DNA from: Micropruina sp.
GTDB taxonomy: Bacteria; Actinomycetota; Actinomycetes; Propionibacteriales; Propionibacteriaceae
DNA: 64,000 bases
Reading direction: 5' to 3'
Assembly (NCBI RefSeq): GCF_047606665.1
Contig: NZ_JASGEF010000047.1
Location: forward strand, 34,172-98,171
In this document: positions 5,690 through 22,900 of the stretch, in pieces
How the letters are laid out: each line of letters begins with the position of its first letter
Position numbering within the stretch: position 1 is the stretch's first letter
The notes under the pieces: model-generated
Database searches by the model: none
What the model was told of the DNA's origin: nothing
The model's input: only the letters and a program-made list of their open reading frames with translations
Made by a program: the position numbers and the translations under genes

Positions 5690-6560
5690 GCTGCCCGAGG
5701 TCGAGACCGTCCGGGCCGGGTTGGCGTCCATCGTCGCCGGACGCCGCATCGATACGGTGACCGTGCTGCACCCGCGTCCGGTACGCCGGCATCCGGGTGG
5801 CCCGGACGACTTCGCCGCCACCCTCGCCGGCCGAACCTTCGCCGAGCCCCGGCGTCGCGGCAAGTACCTGTGGCTGCCGTTCGCCGACGGCGACGCGCTG
5901 CTGGCGCACCTCGGGATGAGCGGACAGTTCCGGCTGGACGTCCCCGGCGCGCCGCTGCTGCCCAACACGCGAGTGCTGTTCGACCTGGTGGACGACGCAG
6001 CCCCCTCCTCGTCATCCCGGCGAACGCCGGGATCTCCCAGCCAGCTCCGCTTCATCGACCAGCGGATGTTCGGCGGCCTGTCGCTCAGTTCGGGCGGCGC
6101 CGAACTGCCCGCCGAACTCGCCCACATCGGACGCGACCCGTTCGATCCCGCCTTCGACCTGGCCGCCGCGGTGCGGAAGATCCGCGGCAAGCGCAGCGCC
6201 GTCAAGCGGGTGCTGCTCGACCAGACGGTGGTCTCCGGCATCGGCAACATCTACGCAGACGAGGCGCTGTGGCGGGCCCGGCTGCACTACGACCGTCCGG
6301 CCGATACCCTCACCGCCGCGAAGGCACGGGAACTGCTCGGCCACGCCCGCGACGTGATGGCCGAGGCACTCGAGCAGGGCGGCACCTCGTTCGACGCCCT
6401 CTACGTGAACGTCAACGGCAGCTCCGGGTACTTCGAGCGGGCACTGGCTGCCTACGGACGCGAGGGCCTGCCCTGCCAGCGCTGTGGACGTCCGATCAAA
6501 CGCGAGCCGTTCATGAACCGATCCTCGTTCCGCTGCCCGTCCTGCCAGCGAAAACGATGA
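5682..6560 (+). CDS. mutM: Formamidopyrimidine-DNA glycosylase (Fpg/MutM)
   Basis: [15 protein letters not shown]-terminus (ATG 5682, 8-nt overlap with rnc). H2TH region and C-terminal zinc finger CQRCG..CPSCQ are present. Confidence 0.95.
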
Positions 6561-6626: not shown

Positions 6627-6982
6627 ATGTGGAGCGTGGACGTCGGGCTGATCGAGGACTGGCTCAACTCGCTCGACAGGGCGTCGTGGAAGCAGGTGAT
6701 GGCGGCCATTGAGGTGCTTCGTGAGTTCGGTCCGCAGTTGGGCCGTCCGCTCGTGGACTCGTTGACCGCGTCCAGGCACCGGAACATGAAGGAGCTCAGG
6801 CCGGGATCGTCGGGCCGCAGCGAACTCAGGGTCCTGTTCGCCTTCGACCCGAGCGCCGGGCGATCATGCTGGTGGCCGGCGACAAGGCCGGGAACTGGAC
6901 GCGGTGGTACAAGAAGAACCTCCCGGTGGCCGACGACCTGTTCGACGACCACCTACACAGACTGAGGACCGGCAGAGACTGA
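6627..6982 (+). pseudogene. HigB/RelE-superfamily (Gp49/DUF891-like) toxin, frameshifted
   Basis: ORF 6627.. reads ..KELRPGSSGRSELRVLFAFDPS and then nonsense. Shifting frame near 6848-6860 gives RRAIMLVAGDKAGNWTRWYKKNLPVADDLFDDHLHRL, ending at TGA 6980-6982. That is the expected family C-terminus. Confidence 0.7.
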
Positions 6983-6989
6983 GAGGAGA

Positions 6990-7313
6990 GTGATCGAGAT
7001 GGCACTGAGCTACGAGGAGTACCTGGCCAAGCACCCCGTCGACGCCGCGGACCGGGCGGAGATCGACGCACACAAGGAGCGGATGCTCGCCGAGGTGCGG
7101 GCCTACCGCCTTCGCGAGCTGCGCGAGCAGGCCGGCCTCACCCAGGCGCAGTTGGCCGAGCGCATCGGCGTCGGGCAGCGGCAAGTCTCGAAGATCGAGC
7201 GTGGAGATCTCGACAGCGCCAAGGTTGGCACGATCCGCAGGTATCTTGAGGCCGTCGGCGGTGGCCTTGCCGTCGAGTACGTGATGGGCGACGAGCGCAT
7301 CCAGGTCGGCTGA
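6990..7313 (+). CDS. XRE-family HTH antitoxin (HigA-like)
   Basis: HTH core LRELREQAGLTQAQLAERIGVGQRQVSKIERGD. It lies directly downstream of the HigB-like remnant. ATG 6999 is an alternative start with better spacing from GAGGAG. Confidence 0.8.
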   Translation: MIEMALSYEEYLAKHPVDAADRAEIDAHKERMLAEVRAYRLRELREQAGLTQAQLAERIGVGQRQVSKIERGDLDSAKVGTIRRYLEAVGGGLAVEYVMGDERIQVG

Positions 7314-7404
7314 TCGTGACCCGGGCGGCCACCAACTTCAATGTGCGAACCGCCTTGATACTGGGCCTACTGTAGGCATACCCATCGGCGATCGGGGGTG
7401 CTCC

Positions 7405-7655
7405 GTGGGTACGACCATCACCAGCCGCGACTTCAACCGTGACGTCTCCGCGGCCAAGCGTGCCGCCGAGCAGGGGCCGGTCACGATCACCGATCACGGC
7501 CGCCCCTCGCGCGTTCTGCTGACCGCGGCGGAGTTCGACCGGCTCTCCGGCAACCAGGAGTTGATGGGGAACCCTCTCTGGAGGAGCCAGGATCCGAGCA
7601 TCGACCTGCTCTGCCGGAGCGCCGTGTCGAGCCTGAGCGCGAGATGGACCTGTGA
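7405..7655 (+). pseudogene. Phd/VapB-type antitoxin with a C-terminal frameshift
   Basis: (M)GTTITSRDFNRDVSAAKRAAEQGPVTITDHGRPSRVLLTAAEFDRL is a typical antitoxin N-terminus. The expected C-terminus LPERRVEPEREMDL* (TGA 7653-7655, GTGA overlap with the vapC start) lies in another frame from about nt 7612. Confidence 0.65.
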
Positions 7656-7880
7656 GGTACCTGCTCGACACGAACGTTCTCAGCGATGCGCGCAGGCAGG
7701 CTCGACCGGAGCTCAACGTCTGGCTGCCGGTCAGCCGGGAGCAGACCTCGCGATCAGTGTCATCACGCTCCTGGAGATCGAACGGGCGTCCTGCTGACGC
7801 ACGAACTCACCGTCGTCACCCGCAATGTGAAGGACTTCCAGCGCACTGGCGTGGATGTGATCGACTCCTGGGAGTTGTGA
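7652..7880 (+). pseudogene. vapC: VapC (PIN domain) toxin remnant: two frame changes and an internal deletion of roughly 60 aa
   Basis: Three frames give MRYLLDTNVLSDARRQARPELNVWL / AAGQPGADLAISVITLLEIER / VLLTHELTVVTRNVKDFQRTGVDVIDSWEL*. Total length is only 229 nt, against about 400 nt for an intact PIN toxin. Confidence 0.7.
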
Positions 7881-8093
7881 GCGTCGCGGGGCCCCATCCT
7901 TCGAGCACCAGGGGCCCGGCCGGTTGCACATCTTGGTCCTTCACCCCGGGTCCGCCGCCACGCCTGCCGCACCACAAGTCTGGAGCACACCCGTTGCGGC
8001 GCGGTACCCCAGCGGTGTCAGAGCTGATCGGTAGCGTAGGCCGCGTCCTGAGTGAACAGCTGACGACGCGCCTCGGCGCAGGAGACGAACCAC

Positions 8094-9659
8094 ATGGCAC
8101 CGACCACCAAAGAGGCCCAGCGCGCCGAGCTGCACAAGACGATCTGGCGGATCGCGAACGACCTGCGCGGCAGCGTCGACGGGTGGGACTTCAAGACCTA
8201 CGTGCTCGGCACCCTGTTCTACCGGTTCATCTCGGAGAACCTCACCTCCTACGTCAACCGGGGCGAGCACGAGGCGGGCAACCTCGAGTTCGACTATCCG
8301 CTCTTGTCCAACCGAGAGGCCGAGGTGGCTCGCACGGAACTGGTGGCGGAGAAGGGCTTCTTCATCTACCCGTCCGAGTTGTTCCAGAACGTGCGTGAGC
8401 GAGCGCCGCGGGACGCGAATCTCAACGAGACGCTGGAGCGGGTCTTCAACAACATCGAGGCATCGGCGGTCGGCACGGACAGCGAGGACGATCTGAAGGG
8501 CCTGTTCGACGACCTCGACGTCAACAGTTCCAAGCTCGGCAACACGGTCGCCAGGCGCAACGAGAAGCTCGTGAAGCTGCTGGATGCGATCGGCGATCTG
8601 CCGCTGGGAGACTTCGAAGACAACGCGATCGACCTGTTCGGTGACGCCTACGAATACCTGATGCAGATGTACGCCTCACAGGCAGGTAAGTCCGGCGGCG
8701 AGTACTACACACCTCAGGAAGTCTCCGAGGTGCTCGCGAAGATCACCGTTGTCGGCAAGACCCGGGTGAATAAGGTCTATGACCCAGCCGCCGGATCGGG
8801 GTCGCTGCTGCTGAAGTTTGCGAAGGTGCTCGGACGCGACAACGTGGGCGGCTTCTTTGGGCAGGAGATCAACCTGACCACCTACAACCTCGCCCGCATC
8901 AACATGTTCCTGCACGACGTGAACTACGAGAAGTTCAACATCGCGCACGGCGACACGCTCACCGATCCGCAGCACTGGGACGACGAGCCGTTCGAGGCGA
9001 TCGTCTCCAACCCGCCTTACTCGATCAAATGGGAGGGTGACGCGAACCCGCTGCTGATCAACGACGAGCGTTACGCACCGGCTGGTGTGCTGGCGCCGAA
9101 GTCGAAGGCCGACCTGGCCTTCACGATGCACATCCTCTCGTGGCTGGCCGTGAACGGTACGGCCGCGATCGTCGAGTTCCCCGGCGTGCTGTACCGGGGC
9201 GGCGCGGAGCGGAAGATCCGCCAGTACCTGATCGACAACAACTACGTGGACGCCGTGATCCAGCTGCCCCCGGATCTGTTCTTCGGCACGACGATCGCGA
9301 CCTGCATCATCGTGCTGAAGAAGTCGAAGACCGACAACGCGGTGCTGTTCATCGACGCCTCGGCCGAGTTCACCCGGGTCGGCAACAAGAACAAGCTGCT
9401 GCCCCGGCACCAGCAGCACATCCTCGACACGTTCACCACGCGGGAGGACGTCGACCACGTCGCCACGCTCGTGCCGAACGAGGACATCGCCGCGAACGAC
9501 TACAACATCGCCGTGTCCTCTTATGTCGTACGGGAGGACACCCGCGAGGTGATCGACATCCGAGCGCTGAACGCCGAGATCGCGCGCATCGTCGCCCGCC
9601 AAGCCGAGTTGCGCACCTCGATCGACGCGATCGTGGCCGACCTTGAGGGCACCGCGTAG
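8094..9659 (+). CDS. hsdM: Type I restriction-modification system, DNA methyltransferase subunit M
   Basis: 521 aa. HsdM N-terminal domain ([36 protein letters not shown]), SAM motif [13 protein letters not shown], and catalytic NPPYSIKW (N6-adenine MTase). Confidence 0.95.
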
Positions 9660-9687
9660 TGTCGGCGGGCGTGAGTAGGGTGCGGCT

Positions 9688-10275
9688 ATGAGTGAGGGCG
9701 AACAGTCGGACGAGCGCCGGGCGCTCGTTCGATCGTCGGCGGCGGAGTACCTGACCTTCGTTGCCGCCACGGGCGACGGCGGTGGTGCGGTCGAGCTGCG
9801 CTACGAGGACGAGAACATCTGGCTGACTCAGAAGCTGATGGCTGAGCTGTATGGAGTCTCGGTCCAGATGGTAAGTAAGCACCTCCAGACGCTGTTCGAG
9901 AGTGGCGAGCTGCAGCCGGAGTCAGTTATCAAGCGATACTTGATAACTGCCGCCGACGGGAAGAACTACAACACGCAGCACTGCAGCCAGTTCTTGAACC
10001 GCCTCGTCTCGATGTACCTCGACTTCGCAGAGTTCCAGGCGATGCGCAAGGTCCCCATGTCGATTCAGGACTTGGCCGCCCGGCTCGACGGCTTCCTCGA
10101 GTTCAATGGCACCGAGATCCTGGTCGGCCCCGGCAGAGTCTCAGCGGAGCAGGCAAAGCTGCACGCCGAAACAGAATTCGAGCGGCACCGGACCGTCCAA
10201 GATCGGCTGTTCAGTAGTGACTTCGACCGCTTCCTCGAAGCTTCGGACGTGAGTGACAAGGAGACGGCGCAATGA
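9688..10275 (+). CDS. RhuM-family-like protein, short form (195 aa)
   Basis: The N-terminal part (VELRYEDENIWLTQKLMAELYGVSVQMVSKHLQTLFESGELQPESVIKRYLITAADGKNYNTQH) and C-terminal part (NRLVSMYLDFAEFQAMRKVPMSIQDLAARLDGFLEFNGTEIL) match my recollection of the two ends of ~330-aa RhuM proteins. The central region is absent. Confidence 0.6.
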   Translation: MSEGEQSDERRALVRSSAAEYLTFVAATGDGGGAVELRYEDENIWLTQKLMAELYGVSVQMVSKHLQTLFESGELQPESVIKRYLITAADGKNYNTQHCSQFLNRLVSMYLDFAEFQAMRKVPMSIQDLAARLDGFLEFNGTEILVGPGRVSAEQAKLHAETEFERHRTVQDRLFSSDFDRFLEASDVSDKETAQ

Positions 10276-11519
10276 GTCGCATCGACGAACTGACCGCCGA
10301 GTTGTGCCCGAATGGTGTCGATTTCAGAACATTGGCCTCCGTTGGACGGTGGTACGGAGGGGGGACGCCATCTAAAGGCAAGGTCGAGTATTGGGAGAAT
10401 GGAACAATTCCGTGGGTGTCTCCGAAGGACATGGGGAGGCGGGTTGTTGATTCAGCTATCGATTCCATCACTGAAGCTGCAGTGCATGGATCGGCGACGA
10501 AGCTAGTGCCGCCAGGGTCAGTTGCGATGGTCGTTAGGTCGAGTATTCTTGACCACACTTTCCCCACTGCGCTCGTGCCCGTTGCTGTCGCTTTAAATCA
10601 GGACATGAAGGCTATTGTGCCATTTGGCGGAGTCCTCCCTGGTTATCTAGCGCATCTGCTGAACTCGCGTGGACAGGATATTCTGCGAGTCGCTAGAAAG
10701 ACCGGCGGATCCGTTGCTTCTATCGAGACCTCCAAGCTCTTCAATTTCCGAATCCCCGTGCCGCCGCTCGAGGTGCAGCGAGAAATCGTGAGAGTGCTGG
10801 ATCAGTTCACTCAGTTGGAGACGGAGCTGGCGGCGGAGTTGAAGGCGGAGCTGGAGGCGCGACGCCAGCAGTATTTCTACTACCGAGACCAACTGTTGTC
10901 CTTCCGCGAGACAGGAGGGGTCCGGTGGATTCCGATTGGTGAGGTCGGAACGATCTTCCGGGGCAAGAGATTCACGAAGGATGATTACGTCGTCGAGGGT
11001 GGCATCGGCGTCATCCACTATGGGGAGATTTATACAGAATATGGCGTATCGGCGTCTCGCGTGAAATCGAGGGTGCGCAGTGAGATGGGCCCTTCGCTGC
11101 GGTACGCAACGAAAGGCGACGTTGTGCTGACCGACGTTGGCGAGACGGTGGTTGACGTCGGTAAGGCTGTTGCGTGGCTTGGTGAGGAGGACGTAGCCAT
11201 CCACGACCACTGCTATGTGATCCGGTCTGATGTTGACGCTACTTACCTTGCGTATGTAATGCAGACAAGTGCATTCACCAGAGAGAAAGGAAAGCACATC
11301 GCGCGAACGAAGGTGAAGACGTTGTTGCTCAACGGGCTGAAGCGGATCGTCGTCCCCGTCCCGCCGCTGGAAGAACAGCGTCGGATCGTCGCGATCCTCG
11401 ACAAGTTCGACGCCCTCGTCAACGACCTGAGTGTGGGTCTTCCTGCCGAACTCAACGCGCGCCGAAAGCAGTACGAGTACTACCGCGACAAGCTGCTGAC
11501 TTTCCGCGAGGCGGCATGA
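10272..11519 (+). CDS. hsdS: Type I restriction-modification system, specificity subunit S
   Basis: 415 aa with two target-recognition halves. Each ends in a conserved coiled-coil repeat (LEVQREIVRVLDQFTQLETELAAELKAELEARRQQYFYYRDQLLSF and LEEQRRIVAILDKFDALVNDLSVGLPAELNARRKQYEYYRDKLLTF). GC looks lower than the surroundings by eye. ATGA overlap with the preceding ORF. Confidence 0.93.
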   Translation: MSRIDELTAELCPNGVDFRTLASVGRWYGGGTPSKGKVEYWENGTIPWVSPKDMGRRVVDSAIDSITEAAVHGSATKLVPPGSVAMVVRSSILDHTFPTALVPVAVALNQDMKAIVPFGGVLPGYLAHLLNSRGQDILRVARKTGGSVASIETSKLFNFRIPVPPLEVQREIVRVLDQFTQLETELAAELKAELEARRQQYFYYRDQLLSFRETGGVRWIPIGEVGTIFRGKRFTKDDYVVEGGIGVIHYGEIYTEYGVSASRVKSRVRSEMGPSLRYATKGDVVLTDVGETVVDVGKAVAWLGEEDVAIHDHCYVIRSDVDATYLAYVMQTSAFTREKGKHIARTKVKTLLLNGLKRIVVPVPPLEEQRRIVAILDKFDALVNDLSVGLPAELNARRKQYEYYRDKLLTFREAA

Positions 11520-12532
11520 TCCCTGCCTTCTTCATCCCGAACCCGCAGTGGCGCGAGCAGATCGACGCGATCGTCGAACTGGTCGGGCGCATCGGCGTCT
11601 TGGAGCAGCTCTCTGCGGGTGTGTTGGAACTGCGGCGGCGCAACCGGGTGCTGGCGGTGAGCAGTTCGACGGCGATCGAAGGCAACACGCTGTCGCTCGC
11701 GCAGGTGGAGGCGATCGCGAAAGGTGAACCTGTCTTCGCGGCGCCGCGTGAGGTGCTGGAGAACCAGAACGCGCTCGCGGCGTACGCCGCCCTCGACGAC
11801 CTGGATCCGTGGAGCGTGCCCGACCTGCTGCGCGCGCACGCCATCCTCACCGGTGGGCTCGTAACCGAGTCCGGAGCCTTCCGCACAGTTGGTGTGGACA
11901 TTGTGAACCCGAAGGGTGAGGTGCTGCACAGCGGCTCGCGCCCAGCGAAGGTGCCCCGCCTGGTGGCGGAGCTGTTGGATTGGGGCCGGACGTCGAACCA
12001 TCACCCGCTCGTGGTGTCCAGCGCCGTCCACTACCTGATCGAGCACATCCATCCCTTCCGTGACGGCAACGGACGCATCGGTCGACTCTGGCAGACGCTG
12101 ATCCTCAGCAGATGGCGACCGCTGTTCGCGTCGGTGCCGGTCGAATCGCTGATCCGCGACAACCAAGCCGGGTACTACCTGGCCCTCCAGGCGTCCCACG
12201 AGCCCGAGATCGACGCTGCGCCGTTCATCGACTACATGCTCGCCATCATCACGCAGACGCTCACCGAGTACGAGCGCCAGGTCCAACGAAGCACGTCGCC
12301 TGACGAGGTAAATGACGAGGCAAGTGACGACCTAAACCAGCGTCTGCTCGCGGTGCTGCGCCAGCACCCGCAGTGGAGCGCGGAGCGGATCGGCCGGCAC
12401 CTGGGTGTGAGCACGCGCACGGTGCAGCGTCACCGCAACCAGCTTCGCGACGCAGGCCGCGTCCGGCACGTCGGCCCGGCGAAGACGGGCCACTGGGAGG
12501 TGATCGATGCAGATCGAGCAGGAGAGCAATGA
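11516..12532 (+). CDS. Fic/DOC family protein with C-terminal winged-HTH
   Basis: Fic motif HPFRDGNGRIGRLW. N-terminal inhibitory-helix-type motif STAIEGN, i.e. (S/T)xxxE(G/N). C-terminal HTH-like segment RIGRHLGVSTRTVQRHRNQLRDAGRVRHVG. ATGA overlap with the hsdS stop. Confidence 0.9.
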   Translation: MIPAFFIPNPQWREQIDAIVELVGRIGVLEQLSAGVLELRRRNRVLAVSSSTAIEGNTLSLAQVEAIAKGEPVFAAPREVLENQNALAAYAALDDLDPWSVPDLLRAHAILTGGLVTESGAFRTVGVDIVNPKGEVLHSGSRPAKVPRLVAELLDWGRTSNHHPLVVSSAVHYLIEHIHPFRDGNGRIGRLWQTLILSRWRPLFASVPVESLIRDNQAGYYLALQASHEPEIDAAPFIDYMLAIITQTLTEYERQVQRSTSPDEVNDEASDDLNQRLLAVLRQHPQWSAERIGRHLGVSTRTVQRHRNQLRDAGRVRHVGPAKTGHWEVIDADRAGEQ

Positions 12533-12622
12533 CTGTCGAGCAGGAGATGCAAGCGACTGCCGCTCACGGGCTGAGTCTGTGACCGGCTGGCTGATGTGCG
12601 AGGGTGCCTCTCGACGCTGCCG

Positions 12623-12648
12623 TAGCATCAGGTAGATCTCTCATCTAC
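12623..12648 (+). promoter_or_regulatory. Candidate internal promoter/operator for phd-vapC-hsdR
   Basis: -10-like TAGCAT (12623-12628) is followed by the inverted repeat GTAGAT-CTCTC-ATCTAC (12632-12648), 10 nt before the phd ATG. It lies in the only sizeable gap (125 nt) of the operon. Confidence 0.4.
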
Positions 12649-12657
12649 TCTTGGGCC

Positions 12658-12912
12658 ATGAACGCCATTTCGGTCGCCGAACTGCGACAGAACCCCACTG
12701 AAGCGCTGGCGCGCGCCGAGGCCGGCGAGACTGTCATCATCACCCGTCACCGTCACCCCATCGCCAAGATCGTCCCGCTGGACGCGCCGGGCGTCGCCCT
12801 CATCCCCGCGCGTAAGCGGGGGCGGGCCAACCTCGATGAGCTGCTTGGTCCCCCACGGCGAACCCACGACGAAGTCGAAGCGTTGCTGGCCGAGATGAAA
12901 GAGGATCGGTGA
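12658..12912 (+). CDS. Phd/YefM-type antitoxin
   Basis: MNAISVAELRQNPTEALARAEAGETVIITRHRHPIAKIVPL, a typical Phd/YefM N-terminal fold sequence. 84 aa. Its stop overlaps the vapC GTG (GTGA). Confidence 0.85.
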   Translation: MNAISVAELRQNPTEALARAEAGETVIITRHRHPIAKIVPLDAPGVALIPARKRGRANLDELLGPPRRTHDEVEALLAEMKEDR

Positions 12913-13310
12913 ATCGCTACTACCTCGACAGTTCGGTGGCGGCGCACGCGATCCTCGCCGGTGGTCACGCACGGGAGTGGCTAGCCGGTGTCACGGGTGA
13001 CGACGGTGCGGAACTGATGTCCTCGCGACTACTGCAGACCGAACTCACTCGCACGCTCCGCCGGGAGGGGATCCCCGTCGCCGAGCGGGGCGCGGTTCTC
13101 GACTACGTCGCCCTGATCCCGATCACCGAGTCGATCCTGGCCGCCGCCGAGGCGATCACCGAACACACCAAGACACTCGACGCCATCCATCTCGCCAGCG
13201 CGCTGGCCATGGGAGGAGACCTCGAACTCGCCACCCACGACATGAACATGCGTCGCCTCGCAGAACTGCTGGGGCTGCGAGTCATCGACCCGGTTGCTGG
13301 AACGTCGTGA
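12909..13310 (+). CDS. vapC: VapC (PIN domain) ribonuclease toxin
   Basis: 133 aa. N-terminal YYLDSSV (first acidic PIN residue), DAIHLASAL and a THD segment. Paired with the upstream Phd-type antitoxin. Confidence 0.85.
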   Translation: MNRYYLDSSVAAHAILAGGHAREWLAGVTGDDGAELMSSRLLQTELTRTLRREGIPVAERGAVLDYVALIPITESILAAAEAITEHTKTLDAIHLASALAMGGDLELATHDMNMRRLAELLGLRVIDPVAGTS

Positions 13311-16300
13311 CCGACGTACCTGCCCGTCGCTACGACCCGATCGCGGTGTCCGCGGAAAGCACCGTCGTGGCCGAGTACGTCCCCGAGGCGGTGGCAGAGG
13401 CCGCCTACCAGTCGGAGGCCGGGCTGGAGCGGGAGTTCATCCGACTACTGCAGTCGCAGGCGTACGAGTACCTGCCGATCACGTCCGAGGAGCAGCTGGT
13501 CGCGAACCTCCGCAACCAGCTGGAAGCGCTGAACCAGATCACCTTCTCCGACTCGGAGTGGCGGGACTTCTTCGAGAACACGATTGCCGGCAAGAACGAC
13601 GGCATCGCCGAGAAGACCGTACGCATCCAAGAGGATCACGTTCAGCTTCTCAAGCGCGACGACGGTTCGACGAAGAACATCACACTGCTGGACAAGCAGA
13701 ACATCCACAACAACCGGCTGCAGGTGATCAACCAGTACACCAACGAAGGCCGAGTGCAGTCGGACGGAGTCCGAACTGCTGAGGCCGAGGCAGGTGTCGA
13801 CGAGCGTAGCGAGGAACATGAGGTCGACCGAGCCGACCCGGCCGACGAGGGCAGTGCGAGCGGGCGCTACGGGAACCGCTACGACGTGACGGTGCTGGTG
13901 AACGGTCTGCCGATGGTGCACATCGAACTCAAGCGGCGCGGTGTGGACATCCGTGAGGCGTTCAACCAGATCGACCGCTACCAGCGCGACAGCTTCTGGG
14001 CGGGCTCCGGTCTGTTCGAGTACGTGCAGCTGTTCGTCATCAGCAACGGCACGCTGACGAAGTACTACTCGAACACGACCCGCAGCCAGCACCTCAAGGA
14101 AGGTCAGGTGTCGGCACGCTCAGCCAGTGGTCGCAACCGCAAGACGTCGAACAGCTTCGAGTTCACGTCGTGGTGGGCGGACGCGCAGAACAGGCCGATC
14201 CAAGACCTGACCTCGTTCGCGAGGACGTTCTTCGCCAAGCATGCGCTGCTGAACATCCTGACCCGCTATTGCGTGCTCACCGCCGACCGGATGCTGCTGG
14301 TGATGCGGCCGTACCAGATCGTGGCGACGGAGCGGATTCTGCAGCGCATCGAGATCGCCACCAACTACAAGCGTCTCGGTACGATCGCCGCCGGCGGCTA
14401 CGTGTGGCATACCACCGGTTCGGGCAAGACCCTCACCAGCTTCAAGACCGCACAGCTTGCGTCGGCGTTGCCGAGTGTGGACAAGGTGCTGTTCGTCGTG
14501 GACCGCAAGGATCTCGACTACCAGACGATGCGCGAGTACGACCGCTTCCAGAAGGGCGCGGCCAACTCCAACACCTCCACGGCTGTGCTGAAGCGTCAGC
14601 TGGAAGACCCCGCCGCGCGGATCATCATCACCACGATCCAGAAGCTATCGATGTTCATCAAGGCGAACAAAGGGCATATGGTCTACGACCATCATGTGGT
14701 GATCATCTTCGACGAGTGTCACCGCTCGCAGTTCGGTGACATGCACACCGACATCACCCGCTCGTTCAAGCGGTACAACCTGTTCGGCTTCACCGGGACG
14801 CCGATCTTCGCCGCCAACAGCGGCAGCGGTGGCAACCCGCAGTTCAAGACCACCGAGCAGGCGTTCGGAGAGAAGCTGCACACCTACACGATCGTGGACG
14901 CGATCACCGACAAGAACGTGCTGCCCTTCCGCATCGACTACGTGAACACCGTCAAAGTCGGCACCGTCACCGACAAGCAGGTCTCCGCGATCGACGCGGA
15001 GAAAGCTCTCCTGGACCCGAAGCGGATCGGCGAGATCGTCAAGTACACGCTGGAGCACTTCGACCAGAAGACCAAGCGGGCCTCCAGCTACGAGCACTCC
15101 GTCGTCACCAACGTCGCCGAGGCTGCGCGCACGCGACGCCAGGAGGCCGTGCGCCAGCGCAAGCGGGTGCGCGGGTTCAACGCGATCTTCGCGACCGCCT
15201 CGATCGATGCCGCGCGCCGGTACTACAACCACTTCCACGTCCAGCAGCGCGAACTGCCACCGGACAAGCGGCTGAAGATCGGTCTCATCTACTCCTACGG
15301 CGCGAACGACGCCACCGATGACGGCATCCTCGACGACGAGGCCTTCGACACCGACGCCCTGTCGATAGATGCTCGCGGCTTCCTGGAGGATGCGATCCAG
15401 GACTACAACGACCTGTTCGGCACGAGCTACGACACCAGCGCGGAACGGTTCCAGAACTACTACAAAGATCTCTCGCAGCGACTGAAGAACCGCGAACTCG
15501 ACCTGGTGATCGTGGTCAACATGTTTCTCACCGGCTTCGACGCCACCACGCTGAACACCCTGTTCGTTGACAAGAACCTGCGCGCCCACGGCCTGATTCA
15601 GGCCTACTCGCGGACGAACCGCATCCTCAACTCCGTGAAGACCTACGGCAACATCGTCGCGTTCCGCGACCTCGAGGACGAGACCAACGCCGCGCTGGAA
15701 CTCTTCGGCAACAAGGACGCCCGCGGCGTCGTCCTACTGAAACCCTACGGCGACTACTACGGCGAGTACGCCGAGAAGGTACAGGAGTTGCTGAGCAGGT
15801 TCCCGCTCGGGCAGCCGATCATCGGGGAGCGCGCGCAGAAGGAGTTCATCCAGCTGTTCGGCGCGATCCTGCGGCTGGAGAACATCCTCACCTCCTTCGA
15901 CGACTTCGCCGGCAACGAGATCCTCACCGAACGCCAGGGGCAGGACTACCGCAGCGTCTACCTCGACCTGTACGCGGAGTTCCGCAAGGACAGAACCGCC
16001 GAGAAGGAGTTCATCAACGACGACGTGGTCTTCGAGATCGAACTCATCAAGCAGGTCGAGATCAACGTCGACTACATCCTGATGCTCGTCGCCAAGTACC
16101 GGGAGCAGTTCGGCGACGGCCAGGACAAGGAGATCCGCTCCGAGATCAGCCGCGCCGTCGACGCGAGCCCGACCCTGCGCAACAAGAAGGACCTCATCGA
16201 AGCGTTCGTGGATTCTGTTTCGGTCGACGGTGCGATCGACGAGGAATGGCAGGCGTTCATCGCAGCCAAACGAGAAGCGGAGCTGACGGCGATCATCGAG

Positions 16301-16519
16301 GAGGAGAACCTTCGCGCCGAGGAGACCCGCGCGTTCGTCGAGACCGCGTTCCGAGACGGCGCACTCCGTGCCACCGGAACTGCGATCACGAAAGTACTCC
16401 CGCCCACCTCCCGCTTCGCGGCCGGCGGAAGCCACGGCGAGAAGAAGCAGCGCGTGATCCAGAAGCTCGGCGCGTTTTTCGACCGGTTCTTCGGACTCGG
16501 TGCGGCAGGAGCTGGCTAG
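13307..16519 (+). CDS. hsdR: Type I restriction enzyme, endonuclease/translocase subunit R (EcoR124I-like)
   Basis: 1070 aa. Nuclease core NRYDVTVLVNGLPMVHIELKRRG, helicase motif I TTGSGKTLTSF, DEAH-type FDECHRSQ, motif VI QAYSRTNR. The GTG start overlaps the vapC TGA (13307-13310). Confidence 0.95.
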   Translation: MTDVPARRYDPIAVSAESTVVAEYVPEAVAEAAYQSEAGLEREFIRLLQSQAYEYLPITSEEQLVANLRNQLEALNQITFSDSEWRDFFENTIAGKNDGIAEKTVRIQEDHVQLLKRDDGSTKNITLLDKQNIHNNRLQVINQYTNEGRVQSDGVRTAEAEAGVDERSEEHEVDRADPADEGSASGRYGNRYDVTVLVNGLPMVHIELKRRGVDIREAFNQIDRYQRDSFWAGSGLFEYVQLFVISNGTLTKYYSNTTRSQHLKEGQVSARSASGRNRKTSNSFEFTSWWADAQNRPIQDLTSFARTFFAKHALLNILTRYCVLTADRMLLVMRPYQIVATERILQRIEIATNYKRLGTIAAGGYVWHTTGSGKTLTSFKTAQLASALPSVDKVLFVVDRKDLDYQTMREYDRFQKGAANSNTSTAVLKRQLEDPAARIIITTIQKLSMFIKANKGHMVYDHHVVIIFDECHRSQFGDMHTDITRSFKRYNLFGFTGTPIFAANSGSGGNPQFKTTEQAFGEKLHTYTIVDAITDKNVLPFRIDYVNTVKVGTVTDKQVSAIDAEKALLDPKRIGEIVKYTLEHFDQKTKRASSYEHSVVTNVAEAARTRRQEAVRQRKRVRGFNAIFATASIDAARRYYNHFHVQQRELPPDKRLKIGLIYSYGANDATDDGILDDEAFDTDALSIDARGFLEDAIQDYNDLFGTSYDTSAERFQNYYKDLSQRLKNRELDLVIVVNMFLTGFDATTLNTLFVDKNLRAHGLIQAYSRTNRILNSVKTYGNIVAFRDLEDETNAALELFGNKDARGVVLLKPYGDYYGEYAEKVQELLSRFPLGQPIIGERAQKEFIQLFGAILRLENILTSFDDFAGNEILTERQGQDYRSVYLDLYAEFRKDRTAEKEFINDDVVFEIELIKQVEINVDYILMLVAKYREQFGDGQDKEIRSEISRAVDASPTLRNKKDLIEAFVDSVSVDGAIDEEWQAFIAAKREAELTAIIEEENLRAEETRAFVETAFRDGALRATGTAITKVLPPTSRFAAGGSHGEKKQRVIQKLGAFFDRFFGLGAAGAG

Positions 16520-16579
16520 AGCACCGTCGTTGCCGAGTATGTCCCCGATACGACGGCGGAGGCCGCATGTCGGTCGGAG
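16520..16579 (+). pseudogene. Remnant of a second hsdR 5' end
   Basis: The 60 nt directly after the hsdR TAG match hsdR codons 18-37 (13358-13417) at 49/60 nt by my hand alignment. Translations are STVVAEYVPDTTAEAACRSE versus STVVAEYVPEAVAEAAYQSE. Confidence 0.6.
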
Positions 16580-16695
16580 CAGCTGACTGATGCTGGGCTC
16601 TCGTCTTCCGTCTCTCGCACCACCCCGACAGGAATGTCGGTGGTCGCAGCCACGTCGTTGTGGGGCTCGCGGCGGCCCGTCGGTACTCTGGGCGC

Positions 16696-17025
16696 ATGTC
16701 GAGCAACGCCGTGACGCCTGAGACGCTCGCTCTGCGCGGGCTTATTGACGCGCACCACGACGAGTTCCACGCGCTCCTGGCCAAGTACTCGGCGACGAAG
16801 CCGAAGCTGTTCGGCTCGGTCGCCCGTGGTGCCGCGCATGAGGGCAGTGACATCGACATCCTCGTCGAGATGGATCCCGCGGACGGGAATCTGCTGATGC
16901 GGGCATCGGGACTCATGGAAGAGACCAGAGAGTTGTTCGGCCGCGACGACATCGACGTGTTTCCGGTGCAGCTGCTCAAACAGCCTATCTCGCAGTCGGC
17001 GATCGAGGACGCGGTCGCACTGTGA
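16696..17025 (+). CDS. Nucleotidyltransferase-domain antitoxin (MntA-like)
   Basis: LFGSVARGAAHEGSDIDILVEM (GSxxRG..SDxDxLV minimal NTase motif). ATG 16696 lies inside ORF 16660..17025. Overlaps the HEPN gene start. Confidence 0.85.
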   Translation: MSSNAVTPETLALRGLIDAHHDEFHALLAKYSATKPKLFGSVARGAAHEGSDIDILVEMDPADGNLLMRASGLMEETRELFGRDDIDVFPVQLLKQPISQSAIEDAVAL

Positions 17026-17687
17026 TCCGCAGCACCGACAGGAGGATCGCCGACATCCTGCAGGCGATCGAGCGATGCCAGAGGTATGTTGGCGCGCTCA
17101 GCGACGATGGCGAAGCAAATCTCGTCGATATGGCTGAGGACGCTATTGAGCGGAATCTCCAGGTCATCGGCGAGGCAGCGAACTATTTGCCGGCGGAGCT
17201 CACCGAAGCGTGTCCGGAGATCCCGTGGCCGCAGATCCGAGGCTTCCGAAACATCCTGGTCCACCAGTACTTCGGAGTCGATTCCAACATCGTCCGTGAC
17301 GTCGTCGAAACGCATCTACCGCCACTCGCGGAGGCGCTGCGCCAACGTGCTGGGGGAGATTCGGGGCGGCACCCCCTAACTAATGTGGGCGAGTCGTCAT
17401 CGGTCGTACACATCGGGGCGATGACCAAGGGTGACGACCACGACGAGCAACCTGCCGTCTTCGACGGTGTAGATGATCCGGTAGTCGTCGACGCGGATCC
17501 GCAGGGCGTCACGCCTGCGCAGGGCTTTCGCTCCCGGTGGCCGAGGGCCGACTGTGAGCAAGGCGATCGCTCCCCGGATCCGGGCATGGTCCTGGCGGTC
17601 GATCCTCTTCAACGCCCGCAGGGCGGCGGAGCGCACCTCGATCTCGTAGACCATGCTCCTGGGTTCACCAACCCAGGTCAGCTTTGA
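17022..17687 (+). CDS. HEPN/DUF86 (HepT-like) toxin; the literal ORF reads through about 100 codons beyond the conserved domain
   Basis: Rx4HxY motif RGFRNILVHQY. The conserved domain ends near nt 17360. TAA codons at 17377 and 17381 lie in the two other frames, directly after a C5 run. The in-frame stop is only at 17687, antisense to the convergent relE gene. Confidence 0.75.
   Translation: MIRSTDRRIADILQAIERCQRYVGALSDDGEANLVDMAEDAIERNLQVIGEAANYLPAELTEACPEIPWPQIRGFRNILVHQYFGVDSNIVRDVVETHLPPLAEALRQRAGGDSGRHPLTNVGESSSVVHIGAMTKGDDHDEQPAVFDGVDDPVVVDADPQGVTPAQGFRSRWPRADCEQGDRSPDPGMVLAVDPLQRPQGGGAHLDLVDHAPGFTNPGQL
17397..17654 (-). CDS. RelE/ParE family toxin
   Basis: MVYEIEVRSAALRALKRIDRQDHARIRGAIALL..ALRIRVDDYRIIYTVEDGRLLVVVVTLGHRPDVY. 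Internal ATG of ORF 17397..17759. Confidence 0.85.
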   Translation of the reverse strand: MVYEIEVRSAALRALKRIDRQDHARIRGAIALLTVGPRPPGAKALRRRDALRIRVDDYRIIYTVEDGRLLVVVVTLGHRPDVYDR

Positions 17688-17910
17688 CCTGCGCCCAGGG
17701 GATGTTCGGGCCCTCCTCGGCCATCGCGGCGTCGAACGCGGCGACGTCCTCGACCTCATCGGCGGCCTCTCGGAGCCGTCCGTACTCCGCGGGGGAGAGG
17801 ATCACGGCCTGGGGCTCGCCGCGGCGCTCGACGATCACGGCCTCGCGCTGGGCGGTCTCGATGACGGCGGCAAAGCTCTTACGTACCTCGGAAACGGTGA
17901 TGGTCGACAT
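17665..17910 (-). CDS. Phd/YefM family antitoxin
   Basis: MSTITVSEVRKSFAAVIETAQREAVIVERRGEPQAVILSPAEYGRL. It lies 10 nt upstream of the RelE/ParE gene. Confidence 0.85.
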   Translation of the reverse strand: MSTITVSEVRKSFAAVIETAQREAVIVERRGEPQAVILSPAEYGRLREAADEVEDVAAFDAAMAEEGPNIPWAQVKADLGW

Positions 17911-18061
17911 CGCTCGATTGTACAAGAATGAGACTAAAAGGTACGTTTCGGCACTGCCCGGCGGCCCATGCCGTCGCCAGCCGGCCGTCACGCCGCAGGT
18001 CCGTCCTGGGTCGCGGCCGGCTTGGGCTAACGAACTGTCCGTCGAAATCAGGGTTCACTAG

Positions 18062-18601
18062 GTGCTTCGCGAACTCGACTCGGCGGACGCGGGAGACCTC
18101 TTCGTGTTCCGCAGCGACGACGATGCGCAGCGCTACAACGATGCGCCGTTGCGGGAGCCCGCCGAGGCTATGGCGTTGATCGAGCGGGTGCGGGCGGAAT
18201 TCGCTGCCGGCGAGGGCGTCTACTGGGCTTTGGCGGTGCCCGACGACCCCCGCGCGATCGGCCTGTTCGGGCTTGGCGGTTGGGATCGGTACCACCGCCG
18301 AGCCGAGATCGGCTACAACGTGCACCGCGATCACTGGGGCCAAGGGCTCGCCACCGAGGCGGTCCGCGGCATCCTGGAGTTCGCATTCACCACGATGAAC
18401 CTCAATCGCATCGAGGCGCTGATCATCGCCGACAACCATCCGTCGGTCCGGCTTGTCGAGCGCGTCGGATTCGTCCGCGAAGGCACGAGGCGAGCGTGCT
18501 CGTGGGAAGAAGACGGCGTCTTCCATGACAGTGCGATCTACGGTCTGCTCCAGCGTGAATACCAGGCGACCGGCGTCCGACCCAGCCCACGTCGAGCGTG
18601 A
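18062..18601 (+). CDS. GNAT family N-acetyltransferase (RimJ/RimL-like)
   Basis: 179 aa. RAEIGYNVHRDHWGQGLATEAVRGILEFAF..LNRIEALIIADNHPSVRLVERVGFVREG matches the acetyl-CoA-binding GNAT core. Confidence 0.85.
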   Translation: MLRELDSADAGDLFVFRSDDDAQRYNDAPLREPAEAMALIERVRAEFAAGEGVYWALAVPDDPRAIGLFGLGGWDRYHRRAEIGYNVHRDHWGQGLATEAVRGILEFAFTTMNLNRIEALIIADNHPSVRLVERVGFVREGTRRACSWEEDGVFHDSAIYGLLQREYQATGVRPSPRRA

Positions 18602-18628
18602 CTTGAGAAGGTCGCCTGAATCGCCCGC

Positions 18629-18656
18629 ATGTATGCATTGTCTACAATGCATACAT
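18629..18656. promoter_or_regulatory. 28-bp AT-rich palindromic operator candidate overlapping the copG-type antitoxin start
   Basis: ATGTATGCATTGT-CT-ACAATGCATACAT has 13-nt perfect arms. The start codon ATG (18655-18657) lies within the right arm. Confidence 0.6.
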
Positions 18657-18942
18657 GAGCTCCACGGCACCGCTTGGACGACCCATCTCGGTCCGCCTTC
18701 CGGAGGATCTTCGCAGGCGCATCGAAGCACTGGCACGCGCCACCCGGCGTAGCCAGGGCGACGTCGTCCGCGAGGTGCTTGAGCGCGACTTGGCGAGGCT
18801 GGAGTGGGAGCAGCGAATCGCCGCTCGTGCGGCAGATCTGCGTGCGGGCCGGGTGCAGGCCGTACCCCTCGACGAAGTCGAGCGTGAACTGGGCCTGGAC
18901 GGAGTCGTTATCGACCCGCGCATCGTGGATGACATCGAGTGA
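18655..18942 (+). CDS. Ribbon-helix-helix (CopG/RelB-like) antitoxin
   Basis: RPISVRLPEDLRRRIEALARATRRSQGDVVREVLERDL is an RHH signature. The stop overlaps the toxin GTG. Confidence 0.8.
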   Translation: MSSTAPLGRPISVRLPEDLRRRIEALARATRRSQGDVVREVLERDLARLEWEQRIAARAADLRAGRVQAVPLDEVERELGLDGVVIDPRIVDDIE

Positions 18943-19202
18943 GTTGGCAGGTGGCTCTGTCGCCCGAGGCGGCGAAGTGGCTTCGCAAGGCCGATCCGCA
19001 GGTCGCACGACGCATTCGCGACGCGCTCCGCGTGGTGGCGGCGCTGGACGACCCGCGCAGCAGGGGCAAAGGCCTCACCGCGGGATTGGCCGGCCTATGG
19101 AGGTATCGGGTCGGCGACTATCGCGTGATCTGCGACATCCGGGATCGCGAACTGGTGATCCTTGCCCTCGACGTGGGCAAGCGCGACGAGATCTACGGAT
19201 AG
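18939..19202 (+). CDS. RelE/ParE family toxin
   Basis: 87 aa. ..GLWRYRVGDYRVICDIRDRELVILALDVGKRDEIY is a typical RelE/ParE C-terminus. Confidence 0.85.
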   Translation: MSWQVALSPEAAKWLRKADPQVARRIRDALRVVAALDDPRSRGKGLTAGLAGLWRYRVGDYRVICDIRDRELVILALDVGKRDEIYG

Positions 19203-19357
19203 TCGACCGACGCCCCGCACTCCGGTCGCCAAGAGCCTTGGGTGTCGCAGGACAGGCACGGTACGCGGGTAGCGCCGTCTGCGCGATCCCGGCGCGACTC
19301 GTCCGCTGCCCGCCGCGCCAGCGCCGTCGTCGAGGGCAAGCCGTATAAGGTGCCCTG

Positions 19358-19928: not shown

Positions 19929-22900
19929 ATGCATCTGAAGTCACTGACCCTGCGCGGCTTCAAGTCGTTCGCGTCCACCACCACCCTCGCCTTCGAACCC
20001 GGTATCACCTGCGTGGTCGGGCCGAACGGCTCGGGCAAGTCGAACGTCGTGGACGCCCTCAGCTGGGTGATGGGCGAGCAGGGCGCGAAGTCGCTGCGCG
20101 GCGGCAAGATGGAGGACGTCATCTTCGCCGGCACCTCCGGACGCGCGCCGTTGGGCCGGGCCGAGGTCACCCTCACCATCGACAACACCGACGGTGCGCT
20201 GCCGATCGAGTACACCGAGGTGACGATCAGCCGGACGATGTTCCGCTCCGGTGGCTCCGAATACCGGATCAACGGCAGTACCGCGCGCCTGCTCGACGTC
20301 CAGGAGCTGCTCTCCGATTCCGGCATCGGACGCGAGATGCACGTCATCGTCGGGCAGGGCCAGCTGGATTCGATCCTGCAGGCCACCCCCGAGATCCGCC
20401 GCGGCTTCATCGAAGAGGCGGCCGGCGTCCTGAAGCACCGCAAGCGCAAAGAGAAGGCGCTGCGCAAGCTGGAGGCGACCGGTACCAACCTGAACCGGCT
20501 GACCGATCTGCTGGCCGAGATCCGTCGCCAGCTGAAACCGCTCGGACGCCAGGCCGAGGTGGCCCGCAAGGCCGCGGTGATCCAGGCCGAACTGCGCGAC
20601 GCCAAGGCCCGGCTGATCGCCGACGACTACATCATGGCCACCCTGGCGCTGCAATCGGACCTGGCCGTCGAGGCCGATCTGAAGGCCCGTCGCGCTTCGG
20701 TCGAGGCCGCCCTGGACGCCGCTCGCGCCGCCGAGACCGACGCCGAAGCCGCTGCCCGTGAGGCGTTGCCCCGGCTCAACGCTGCCCAGGAGACCTGGTA
20801 CGGACTGGCCGGGCTGCGGGAACGGCTGGCGTCCACGATGACGATCGCCGGCGAACGCGTCCGGAACGCCGAGAACGCCGGCGACGGCGACCGGCCGGGA
20901 CGCGATCCGGAGCTGATCGAGCGCGAGGCCGCCGAGATGCGCAAGGCCGAGGAGGCGCTCAACGTCGAGGTGGCGCAGGCCGCGCAGGCGTTGACCGACG
21001 CGACCGCGGCCCTGAAGCAGACCGAGGCCGCCCATGAGCAGGCGGAGCGCAGCTACGCCGCGCACTTGCGGGCGATCGCCGACCGCCGCGAGGGTCTCGC
21101 CCGGCTGACCGGCGAGGTCAACACGTTGCGCAGCCGCACCGAGGCCGCCGGTGCCGAGATCGAACGGCTCAGCTCCGCCCGCGATGACGCGCTGGCCCGC
21201 GCCAGCGCCGCGACCCGCTCGTTCGCCGCGTTGGAGACCCGGATCGCCGGGGTCAGCGACGGCGAGTCCGGCCTGGACGCCGCCTACGAATCCGCCGCCG
21301 CCGAGGTGGAACGGATCGAGGCCGGGCTGGCCGACGTCCGGCGCGCCGAGGCGAAGGCGCAGACCGAGCGGGCCACCCTGGCCGCCCGGCTGGACGCGTT
21401 GGCGTTGGGCCTGGAACGCAAGGACGCCTCCGCGGCCCTGCTCGCCGCCGGCGACGCGGTGGGCGGGCTGCTCGGCTCGGTGGCGACCCTGATCGGGGTC
21501 GAACCCGGTTGTGAAGTGGCGATTTCGGCGGCTCTCGGGTCGGCCGCGGACGCCGTCGCGGTCGCCGGGCTGGACGCCGCCGTGGGCGCGTTCGGGCATC
21601 TGAAAGCCGAGGATCTGGGCCGTGCCGGACTGTTGCTGGGCGGCTCGGCCCATCCGGACGCCGACTGCTGGCCGACGTTGCCGGGCGGGGCGCGCTGGGC
21701 GATCGACGCGGTGACCTGCACCGACCAGGTGAGGCCCGCGCTGGCCCGGCTGTTGCTGAAAGTCGCCGTGGTGGACGATCTGCCGGCCGCCCGCGCACTG
21801 GTCGCCGACCTGCCCGACGTCACTGCGGTGACCCGCGACGGCGACGTGCTCAGCCAGTGGTTCGCCGCCGGCGGATCGTCGGCGAAACCGTCGCTGATCG
21901 AGGTGCAGGCCGCCGTCGACGAGACCGAGTCGCGGCTGGCCGGCGTCCAGGCCGACCTGGAACGGGCCCGGTTCGCGCTCGCCCAGCACGAGGCCGAGCT
22001 GGCCCAGGCGCGCGAGCGGGCCGAGGCGGCGCTGGCCCGGCTGCACGAATCGGACGCCGAACATGCCGCACTGGCCGAAGAGCTGGCCACGCTCAGCCAG
22101 ACCACCCGTGCCGCGCAGGCGGAGGCCGAGCGGCTGGCGGCGTCCATCGCGGCGGCGCAAGCCACCCGCGAGCAGAACCGCACTGCGCTGGCGGCGTTGG
22201 AGCAGCGCCTCGAACTGGCCTCGGCGCAGACCGAGGTGACCGAGGCCGACCCGTCCGAACGCGACCGGCTGAGCGTGCTGGAGCGTGCGGCCCGCGGTGC
22301 CGAGATGGAGGCCCGGCTGGCGCTGCGCACCATCGAGGAGCGCGCCCGTGCGCTGGCCGGACGTGCCGACTCGCTGACCCGTGCCGCCGCCGCGGAACGT
22401 CAGGCGCGAGCACGGGCAGCCGCCCGTCGCGAACAGCTGCGCCGCGAGGCTGCCGACGCGCGTGCGGTCAGCGAGGCCGCGATCTGGCTGCTCGGCCGGG
22501 TCGAGGCGTCCCAAGAGCTGGCCGCCGCCGAACGGTCCGCGGCGGAGGCCGCCCGGCTGGCCGCCGAGAACACGCTCACCGAGGCGCGGCGTCGCGGCCG
22601 GGAGTTGGCCAAGGAGTTCGAGGACCTGGTCGCCCACGTCCATCGCGACGAGCTGGCCCGGGCCGAGCAGCGGCTGCGGGTCGAAGCGCTCGCCGAGCGG
22701 GCCCTGGTCGAGCTGGGCCTGGACGCCGACGTGCTGGTCGCCGAATACGGCCCCGACCAGCTGATCCCCGTGCTGACCAGGGCCGATGGTTCCGCGCTCG
22801 GGCCGGACGAGCGTCCCGAACCGGTGCCGTTCGTCCGGGCCGAGCAAGAGAAGCGGCTCCGGACGGCGGAACGCAACCTCGGCGTCCTGGGCAAGGTGAA

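Follow-up and report, generated by a model that had tools for sequence, protein, structure and literature searches.

A Phd–VapC toxin–antitoxin cassette with a predicted control region of its own, probably carried as cargo between hsdS and hsdR of an actinobacterial Type I restriction operon

The Micropruina sp. assembly GCF_047606665.1 (NCBI RefSeq) carries, on contig NZ_JASGEF010000047.1, a Type I restriction–modification operon in which a toxin–antitoxin (TA) cassette stands directly in front of the restriction gene hsdR; we analysed this operon within a stretch of 64,000 nucleotides (nt; contig positions 34,172 to 98,171 of the forward strand), here called the window, and coordinates are those of the window unless a relative is named. 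Reading the sequence from 12300 to 13600 together with the list of open reading frames (ORFs) gave a same-strand run of seven genes, namely hsdM, a RhuM-like gene, hsdS, a gene for a Fic protein with a helix-turn-helix (HTH) domain, phd, vapC and hsdR, and all seven assignments are backed by Pfam and NCBIfam (Table 1). The Type I set is intact: hsdM, hsdS and hsdR are full-length ORFs with their characteristic domains, and HsdR is of the EcoR124 type. An earlier note on this DNA had called the 125 nt in front of phd the only real gap in the operon; that length is correct, and the run holds one other gap, of just 28 nt (9660-9687). The remaining junctions, RhuM-like/hsdS, hsdS/Fic, phd/vapC and vapC/hsdR, are overlaps of 4 nt. 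The further landmarks from which that note had argued, a TAGCAT hexamer, the inverted repeat GTAGAT-N5-ATCTAC and two GTGA overlaps, are all real and lie at, or within one base of, the places given for them.

The gene boundaries in the centre of the run are tightly defined. The Fic-HTH stop codon occupies 12530-12532 and phd starts with the ATG at 12658, not 12659; the phd stop and the vapC start share GTGA at 12909-12912, and the vapC stop and the hsdR start share GTGA at 13307-13310. Both vapC and hsdR thus start with a GTG inside the overlap, vapC behind the Shine-Dalgarno sequence AGAGGA, and hsdR behind a weak one, GGAAC, as against AAGGAGG in relatives that carry no additional genes, or cargo, between hsdS and hsdR. 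Four HsdR homologues align from residue 1 (alignment A2), which supports GTG 13307 as the hsdR start.

The antitoxin gene lies directly upstream of the toxin gene and overlaps it, the layout of the VapBC class, and the two products have a Phd/YefM fold and a PIN domain, respectively; on these features we assign the cassette as a Phd/YefM–VapC (PIN) type II TA pair. Among 24 homologues the acidic residues E45 and D91 of VapC are invariant, and at least 90% of them share D7 and D111. The Phd N-terminus resembles that of Mycobacterium tuberculosis VapB46 (PDB 6JQY, E = 4.9e-5), and VapC, searched against PDB sequences both alone and as a profile, gave no matches. Compared with the closest relative of the operon, a Micropruina metagenome-assembled genome (locus L001), phd and vapC have ratios of nonsynonymous to synonymous divergence (dN/dS) of 0.02 and 0.12, respectively, which we read as strong purifying selection on both genes.

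Table 1. Features of the hsd operon and its TA cassette, in window coordinates; positions of the repeats are counted from the phd start codon, and A3 is an alignment of 14 loci.
Feature	Coordinates	Strand	Evidence or remark
hsdM, Type I methyltransferase subunit	8094..9659	+	Pfam N6_Mtase E = 4.9e-110, HsdM_N; NCBIfam hsdM equivalog, 719 bits
RhuM-like gene between hsdM and hsdS	9688..10275	+	Pfam Virulence_RhuM, profile positions 168-248 only
hsdS, specificity subunit, 4-nt overlap with both neighbours	10272..11519	+	Pfam Methylase_S, two stretches
Fic/DOC protein with C-terminal HTH, cargo between hsdS and TA cassette	11516..12532	+	Pfam Fic E = 6e-18, HTH_11
Intergenic gap, conserved with relatives in last ~36 nt only	12533..12657	+	Homology to L001 restarts at 12622
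Tract more diverged from L001 than its flanks: TA cassette and first ~600 nt of hsdR	12622..13950	+	Sliding identity 0.79-0.90
Predicted distal operator repeat GTAGCAT, at -36	12622..12628	+	NTAGAY at -36 +/-1 in 61/70 related loci
Predicted proximal operator repeat GTAGAT, at -26; left arm of inverted repeat	12632..12637	+	NTAGAY at -26 +/-1 in 62/70 loci; TAGA invariant in A3
Right arm of inverted repeat, ATCTAC, overlapping predicted -10	12643..12648	+	TCTA invariant in A3
Predicted -10 hexamer TACTCT (TANNNT), six nt before ATG 12658	12646..12651	+	TANNNT start at -12 or -13 in 66/70 loci
phd, Phd/YefM-type antitoxin, 84 aa	12658..12912	+	Pfam PhdYeFM_antitox (PF02604), residues 1-42, E = 1.8e-10; NCBIfam phd_fam
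vapC, PIN-domain toxin, 133 aa	12909..13310	+	Pfam PIN E = 1.2e-10
hsdR, restriction/translocase subunit, 1070 aa	13307..16519	+	Pfam HSDR_N, SWI2_SNF2/ResIII, T1R_D3-like, EcoR124_C; NCBIfam hsdR

The sequence in front of phd was compared across the TA family. Collecting relatives of VapC yielded 79 genome loci, nearly all of them Phd–VapC pairs of Actinomycetota, and the footprint was built from 70 upstream regions anchored on the phd start codon, with 120 nt examined in each. Two NTAGAY repeats lie 10 bp apart, that is, one helical turn, over the -35 area, in the spacing NTAGAY-N4-NTAGAY and then an inverted arm; elsewhere in the 120 nt, NTAGAY and TANNNT motifs are almost absent. In the subclade to which the window belongs, the proximal repeat has an inverted partner, RTCTAC, overlapping the -10 box, and across alignment A3 the final T of that box is as invariant as the cores of the two arms, while the 5-nt spacer and the other spacers vary; the T and G of the distal repeat are nearly invariant. 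The inverted repeat GTAGAT-N5-ATCTAC spans 12632-12648. Bare 6-nt inverted repeats are common here, with 13 pairs within 361 nt, so one of them carries little weight; the 17-nt pattern GTAGAYN5RTCTAC occurs a single time in the 64-kb window, where 0.05 matches are expected. In the comparison with L001, homology restarts exactly at 12622 after unalignable sequence. The proposal that the gap carries a TA-type promoter/operator is borne out by the footprint across about 70 loci and by this restart of homology: 12622-12657 reads as a clear phylogenetic footprint of a predicted protein-binding operator joined to a promoter, and the conserved repeats together with the -10 box argue strongly for a predicted Phd/VapC binding site whose repeats overlap the promoter.

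The position of the promoter within this footprint had to be revised. TAGCAT, at 12623-12628, had been taken for a -10-like element; it falls inside the distal repeat, and we rejected it as a -10 box since relatives mostly have TAGACA or TAGATC at the same position, neither of which fits TANNNT, whereas TANNNT at -12 is nearly universal. TAGCAT is better read as a distal operator half-site of the NTAGAY type over the -35 area, and the -10 box is most likely TACTCT. Because the 3' end of this hexamer lies six nt before the start codon, the transcript would begin on the A of the phd ATG, and we predict a leaderless phd mRNA starting at 12658. Published start-site maps agree with this placement of TACTCT: upstream of the mapped starts of M. 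tuberculosis, where 32 of 37 TA pairs are leaderless, the centre of TANNNT lies 7-12 bp away (PMC3898074), and in P. acnes, a propionibacterium belonging to the host's order, TAnnnT has its centre at -9 (PMC3848588). An insulating terminator or a structured leader in the gap is unsupported, since folding of 12500-12660 as RNA gave no structure beyond that of shuffled controls (z = +0.69). A terminator scan of 7000-17500 returned two terminator-like sites only, both on the minus strand, and none on the plus strand in the gap; a Sigma-70 promoter scan of the same interval returned no promoter-like sites, a type of scan that is uninformative for actinobacterial promoters.

At the other end of the cassette, the earlier note had described hsdR as translationally coupled to vapC. 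The 4-nt overlap is real and the two genes are contiguous; the coupling itself, however, appears to be generic to the hsd family rather than a property of the TA module. A scan with the HsdR N-terminus gave 80 further loci, 74 of them with both gene ends placeable, and the counts rest on these 74. In 45 of the 74, hsdS directly abuts hsdR with no cargo between them, mostly through NTGA at the hsdR start (35 of the 45), and a 4-nt stop/start overlap is the commonest type of junction in the family, whatever gene lies upstream. The NTGA overlap at the start of hsdR is, on this comparison, ancestral to the hsd family and usually formed with hsdS.

In 27 of the 74 loci, cargo of various kinds, 0.45-2.7 kb in size, occupies this junction. 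The kinds found were AbiEi/AbiEii, Mrr, DUF4357, a weak AAA_13 match, AAA_14-DUF4143, DUF1643, 23S_rRNA_IVP, Bro-N, a Y1_Tnp-like gene and Phd-VapC; cargo was called from Pfam-supported ORFs only, the longest ORFs in GC-rich inserts having given spurious frames. In the window, Fic, phd and vapC lie on the same strand between hsdS and hsdR, and cargo is variable or absent in its hsd relatives; the hsdS–hsdR junction is, as judged from this variety, a recurrent hotspot for the insertion or exchange of small defence and addiction genes. The AAA_13 case concerns a 355-aa ORF that occupies the slot in two relatives (L092 2881-3948 and L097 3690-4757) and overlaps the hsdR start by 4 nt; its match, from a scan of the L092 copy only, is below threshold (34.7 bits against a cut-off of 36). 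The AAA_13 family includes PrrC and RloC, so the L092 and L097 ORFs may encode anticodon nucleases of the PrrC kind within Type I loci of actinobacteria.

Phd-VapC itself has reached this slot repeatedly. The order hsdM...hsdS-phd-vapC-hsdR is found among the genome loci in L001, L005 and L064 only, and further cases of a TA pair in front of hsdR are L081 and L129, both from metagenomes, and the P0005 lineage (L160-L163). The distance between vapC and hsdR is -4 nt in the window, L001 and L005 (the last identical to L129), +4 in L064 and -8 in L081; in L160 the vapC stop overlaps, via ATGA, 22 codons that remain of an hsdR 5' end, followed by another small ORF and then an intact hsdR. In all, five or six independent lineages have vapC and hsdR directly adjoining, with no room between them for a terminator or promoter, and the Phd-VapC family recurs before hsdR in at least five.

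The cassette and the operon around it probably do not share one history. In a neighbour-joining tree of concatenated Phd and VapC, the hsd-linked copies occupy three distinct positions, interspersed with free-standing ones; indeed, VapC of the window is 69% and 71% identical to its counterparts in the free-standing pairs L002 and P0004, both of which are nearer to it than those of the hsd-linked L005, L064 and L081. About 75 of the 79 genome loci of the family are free-standing and have the same promoter/operator. Synonymous divergence (dS) from L001 is 0.63 for each of the two TA genes, phd and vapC, as against 0.13 for hsdM and 0.24 for hsdR; hsdM is 96% identical, and the diverged tract of Table 1 runs through the cassette into hsdR, after which identity is mostly 0.91-0.98 from ~13950 to about 16200 and 0.85-0.87 over the final ~300 nt of hsdR. 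One ancient insertion passed down together with hsd was considered and is disfavoured, given the hsd-linked copies among free-standing ones and a cassette dS above that of the flanking hsd genes; the same two observations favour exchange of the cassette. The mosaic divergence and the hsdR 5' remnant in L160 suggest that recombination between hsd loci has exchanged the cassette together with the hsdR 5' end, as one unit.

The L160 locus is itself layered: the remnant (MTDAPAYHYEPIVVSAESTVVA...) lies at 6408-6480 after vapC, a 125-aa VapB_antitoxin-like ORF follows at 6663-7040 and then the intact hsdR, and hsdM is split into two ORFs. This layout points to serial insertion of cargo by recombination within the hsdR 5' region. 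Other cargo genes are also in flux. The RhuM-like product has 195 aa in the window and 353 aa in L001 (2739-3800 there), and the tblastn match splits into two blocks, which suggests that about 158 aa have been lost from inside the window copy; genes of the RhuM type are found again and again at the hsdM–hsdS junction of relatives, in many of them. The Fic-HTH gene of L001 (4954-5713) is fragmented by a deletion and a frameshift, whereas the window copy is intact, including its Fic motif HPFRDGNGRIGR. Different cargo genes are decaying in two operons that are otherwise near-identical.

The slot and the cassette each have precedents. In enteropathogenic Escherichia coli (EPEC), the TA pair DarTG2 lies between the specificity and endonuclease genes of a Type I system, at a site that its authors call a likely recombination hotspot for defence genes, an example of TA modules embedded in Type I systems that defend against phage (PMC12255303). 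The slot is the same and our cargo survey likewise shows a hotspot; the EPEC pair, however, is an ADP-ribosyltransferase pair rather than Phd-VapC, and the promoter of its island, upstream of hsdM, is controlled by a dedicated repressor, RptR, whereas the operator predicted here is part of the TA cassette and internal to the operon. A 2017 survey found PIN toxins in operons with hsdM, hsdS and hsdR, usually together with other genes and in arrangements not conserved between close species (PMC5499597); it contains no promoter/operator analysis and no arrangement recurring across several lineages, a recurrence that is seen here. The autoregulated operons Phd/Doc and YefM/YoeB resemble the cassette in having the gene for a Phd/YefM-fold antitoxin upstream of, and overlapping, the toxin gene, and in repeated operator half-sites, predicted here, that overlap the promoter. 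The VapBC pairs of M. tuberculosis share with it the leaderless mRNA, which is predicted here and mapped for 32/37 of the TA pairs there, and a near relative of the Phd N-terminus in VapB46. What sets the cassette apart from all of these is a predicted operator of NTAGAY repeats that is specific to its family, and the 3.2-kb restriction gene attached downstream. The Type IC locus EcoprrI, with the gene order prrA(hsdM)-prrB(hsdS)-prrC-prrD(hsdR), has the gene for a latent ribonuclease (RNase), PrrC, in the same slot and an HsdR of the EcoR124 type; there is no separate antitoxin in that case and the restriction complex keeps PrrC silent, whereas here Phd is encoded and nothing links VapC to Hsd. 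The pairs vapBC21 and vapBC42 of M. tuberculosis presumably lie between hsdM and hsdS, a literature search having confirmed the hsdM/hsdS gene identities only.

We consider it likely that the Phd-VapC cassette, with its own control region, is passenger cargo at the hsdS–hsdR junction of an actinobacterial Type I operon. Phd, alone or with VapC, would most likely bind the NTAGAY repeats and the inverted arm over the -35/-10 region and block RNA polymerase; the cassette would in this way repress itself and place a leaderless phd-vapC-hsdR transcript under Phd control. Read-through from the hsdM promoter is likely, because neither a terminator nor a stable hairpin was found before the TA promoter, and hsdR is probably transcribed in two ways, by this read-through and from the TA promoter, given the vapC/hsdR overlap and no terminator detected on either flank of the cassette. 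As hsdR starts with GTG behind a weak Shine-Dalgarno sequence, it is probably translated largely by ribosomes finishing vapC. The overlap itself would have been inherited from the usual hsdS/hsdR junction, and would travel with the cassette and the hsdR 5' end as a recombination unit. The likely benefit of the TA pair would be stabilisation of the locus, perhaps with a second-line growth arrest, and probably not a timer for restriction; that a TA module stabilises its locus by addiction is a reasonable, generic idea that has already been published (PMC5499597).

Several points weigh against this account. That one TA family has come to stand before hsdR in at least five lineages could mean that some functional link exists and that the cassette is more than a passenger. 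The polyphyly of the hsd-linked copies, which comes from a neighbour-joining tree of short proteins, is suggestive, not proven. Actinobacterial terminators are frequently without a U-tract, and a simple scan and a fold z-score may miss one. The distal repeat of the window and L001, GTAGCA, departs from the NTAGAY consensus and happens to fit TANNNT, and a second, minor, leadered start near 12635, driven from TAGCAT, is possible. The transcription start, promoter activity and read-through at the locus are all inferred.

The earlier note had gone further and suggested that the TA autoregulatory circuit may set the expression of hsdR; acting as the main control, it would buffer or delay production of the restriction subunit compared with methylation, a role likened to that of the C-proteins of Type II systems, and would make loss of the locus toxic. 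Such a role is not without attractions: the TA promoter/operator is the only promoter-like, conserved non-coding element before hsdR, the tight vapC/hsdR junction recurs in several lineages, and hsdR, which overlaps vapC, starts with GTG behind a weak Shine-Dalgarno sequence; classical Type I systems such as EcoKI and EcoR124I, moreover, have an hsdR promoter separate from that of hsdMS. We nevertheless judge it unlikely. Cargo-free relatives couple hsdR directly to hsdS without a separate promoter, so in the hsd family the operon promoter would normally drive hsdR; the scan showed no terminator ahead of the TA promoter, making read-through likely; and unrelated cargo without a promoter gap occupies the same site. 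A delay of the C-protein kind is itself unlikely, because the promoter of an autorepressed circuit is fully open on entry to a naive cell: negative autoregulation limits expression without delaying it, giving a fast rise to a low, buffered level, and a repressor-only circuit would produce an early burst of transcription. None of the genes between hsdS and hsdR (Fic-HTH, Phd, PIN) is of the C-protein HTH_3 type in Pfam, a comparison that included no separate search for C-boxes; the predicted operator is of the kind typical of the TA family. The likeness to Type II systems is confined to the general idea that a small DNA-binding protein encoded just upstream influences the restriction gene; C-proteins are HTH activator-repressors that create a delay by positive feedback at C-boxes, whereas simple repression is predicted here.

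We regard each of two further readings as distinctly improbable. One makes the TA promoter/operator a stress or infection switch, in which degradation or dilution of Phd derepresses the leaderless phd-vapC-hsdR transcript, HsdR rises together with free VapC, and repeated capture of this one TA family with the hsdR 5' end in at least five lineages reflects a selected link and not chance; the triggers, if this were true, would be phage shut-off of host expression, stress or entry into a new cell, and the strength of restriction would be tied to the state of the TA module. The other takes the cassette for a purely selfish passenger that maintains only itself, with hsdR served by read-through from the hsdM promoter and the overlap a relic of insertion or recombination. 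The predominance of free-standing family members with the same promoter/operator, the many kinds of cargo accepted by the site, the generic nature of the overlap and the scatter of hsd-linked copies across the TA tree all speak for it; without a terminator after vapC, however, transcription from the TA promoter must run into hsdR, making some contribution hard to avoid, and the same TA family is at the site in at least five lineages. A PrrC-like guardian, in which the RNase VapC would be released on inhibition of the Type I enzyme or phage shut-off of host expression to cause abortive infection, a second defence line behind restriction, could appeal to the position of prrC in EcoprrI, to the possibly PrrC-like, weak AAA_13 match at the site in L092 and L097 and to phage defence by DarTG2, but is very improbable given a dedicated antitoxin that makes an Hsd interaction unnecessary, no sequence sign of contact between VapC or Phd and the Hsd subunits, and a TA family that is mostly free-standing.

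The operon is bracketed by TA modules. Directly upstream of hsdM lies a second Phd-type antitoxin ORF (7405-7880, PF02604), followed by a PIN toxin broken across three frames ('RYLLDTNVLS...', '...ISVITLLEIERA...', '...VVTRNVKDFQRTGVDVIDSWEL') that looks like a decayed vapC pseudogene, and just upstream, at 6627-7313, another putative TA pair consists of a Gp49-like (HigB/RelE-type) ORF and then an HTH_3 ORF. On the other side, hsdR is closely followed by a pair of genes for a nucleotidyltransferase (MNT) and HepT (16660-17687) and by one for a GNAT acetyltransferase (18062-18601); the block of ~2.8 kb that contains them (16520-19345) is absent from L001, which realigns only at window position 19345. 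About 3.4 kb downstream of the operon, a full-length gene for an SMC protein (1184 aa, 19929-23483) argues for a chromosomal rather than a plasmid or phage setting of the defence cluster.

With the Phd-VapC cassette read as passenger cargo, the locus is a well-documented actinobacterial example of defence and TA genes carried between hsdS and hsdR, a pattern that was already known. The new points are modest and drawn from sequence comparison: a predicted operator and leaderless-promoter architecture that extends across the TA family, the repeated presence of one TA family in this slot, and its apparent co-transfer with the 5' end of hsdR. If the TA promoter adds an antitoxin-sensitive part to hsdR expression, this would be a simple and previously untested route by which an addiction module could tune a restriction enzyme.

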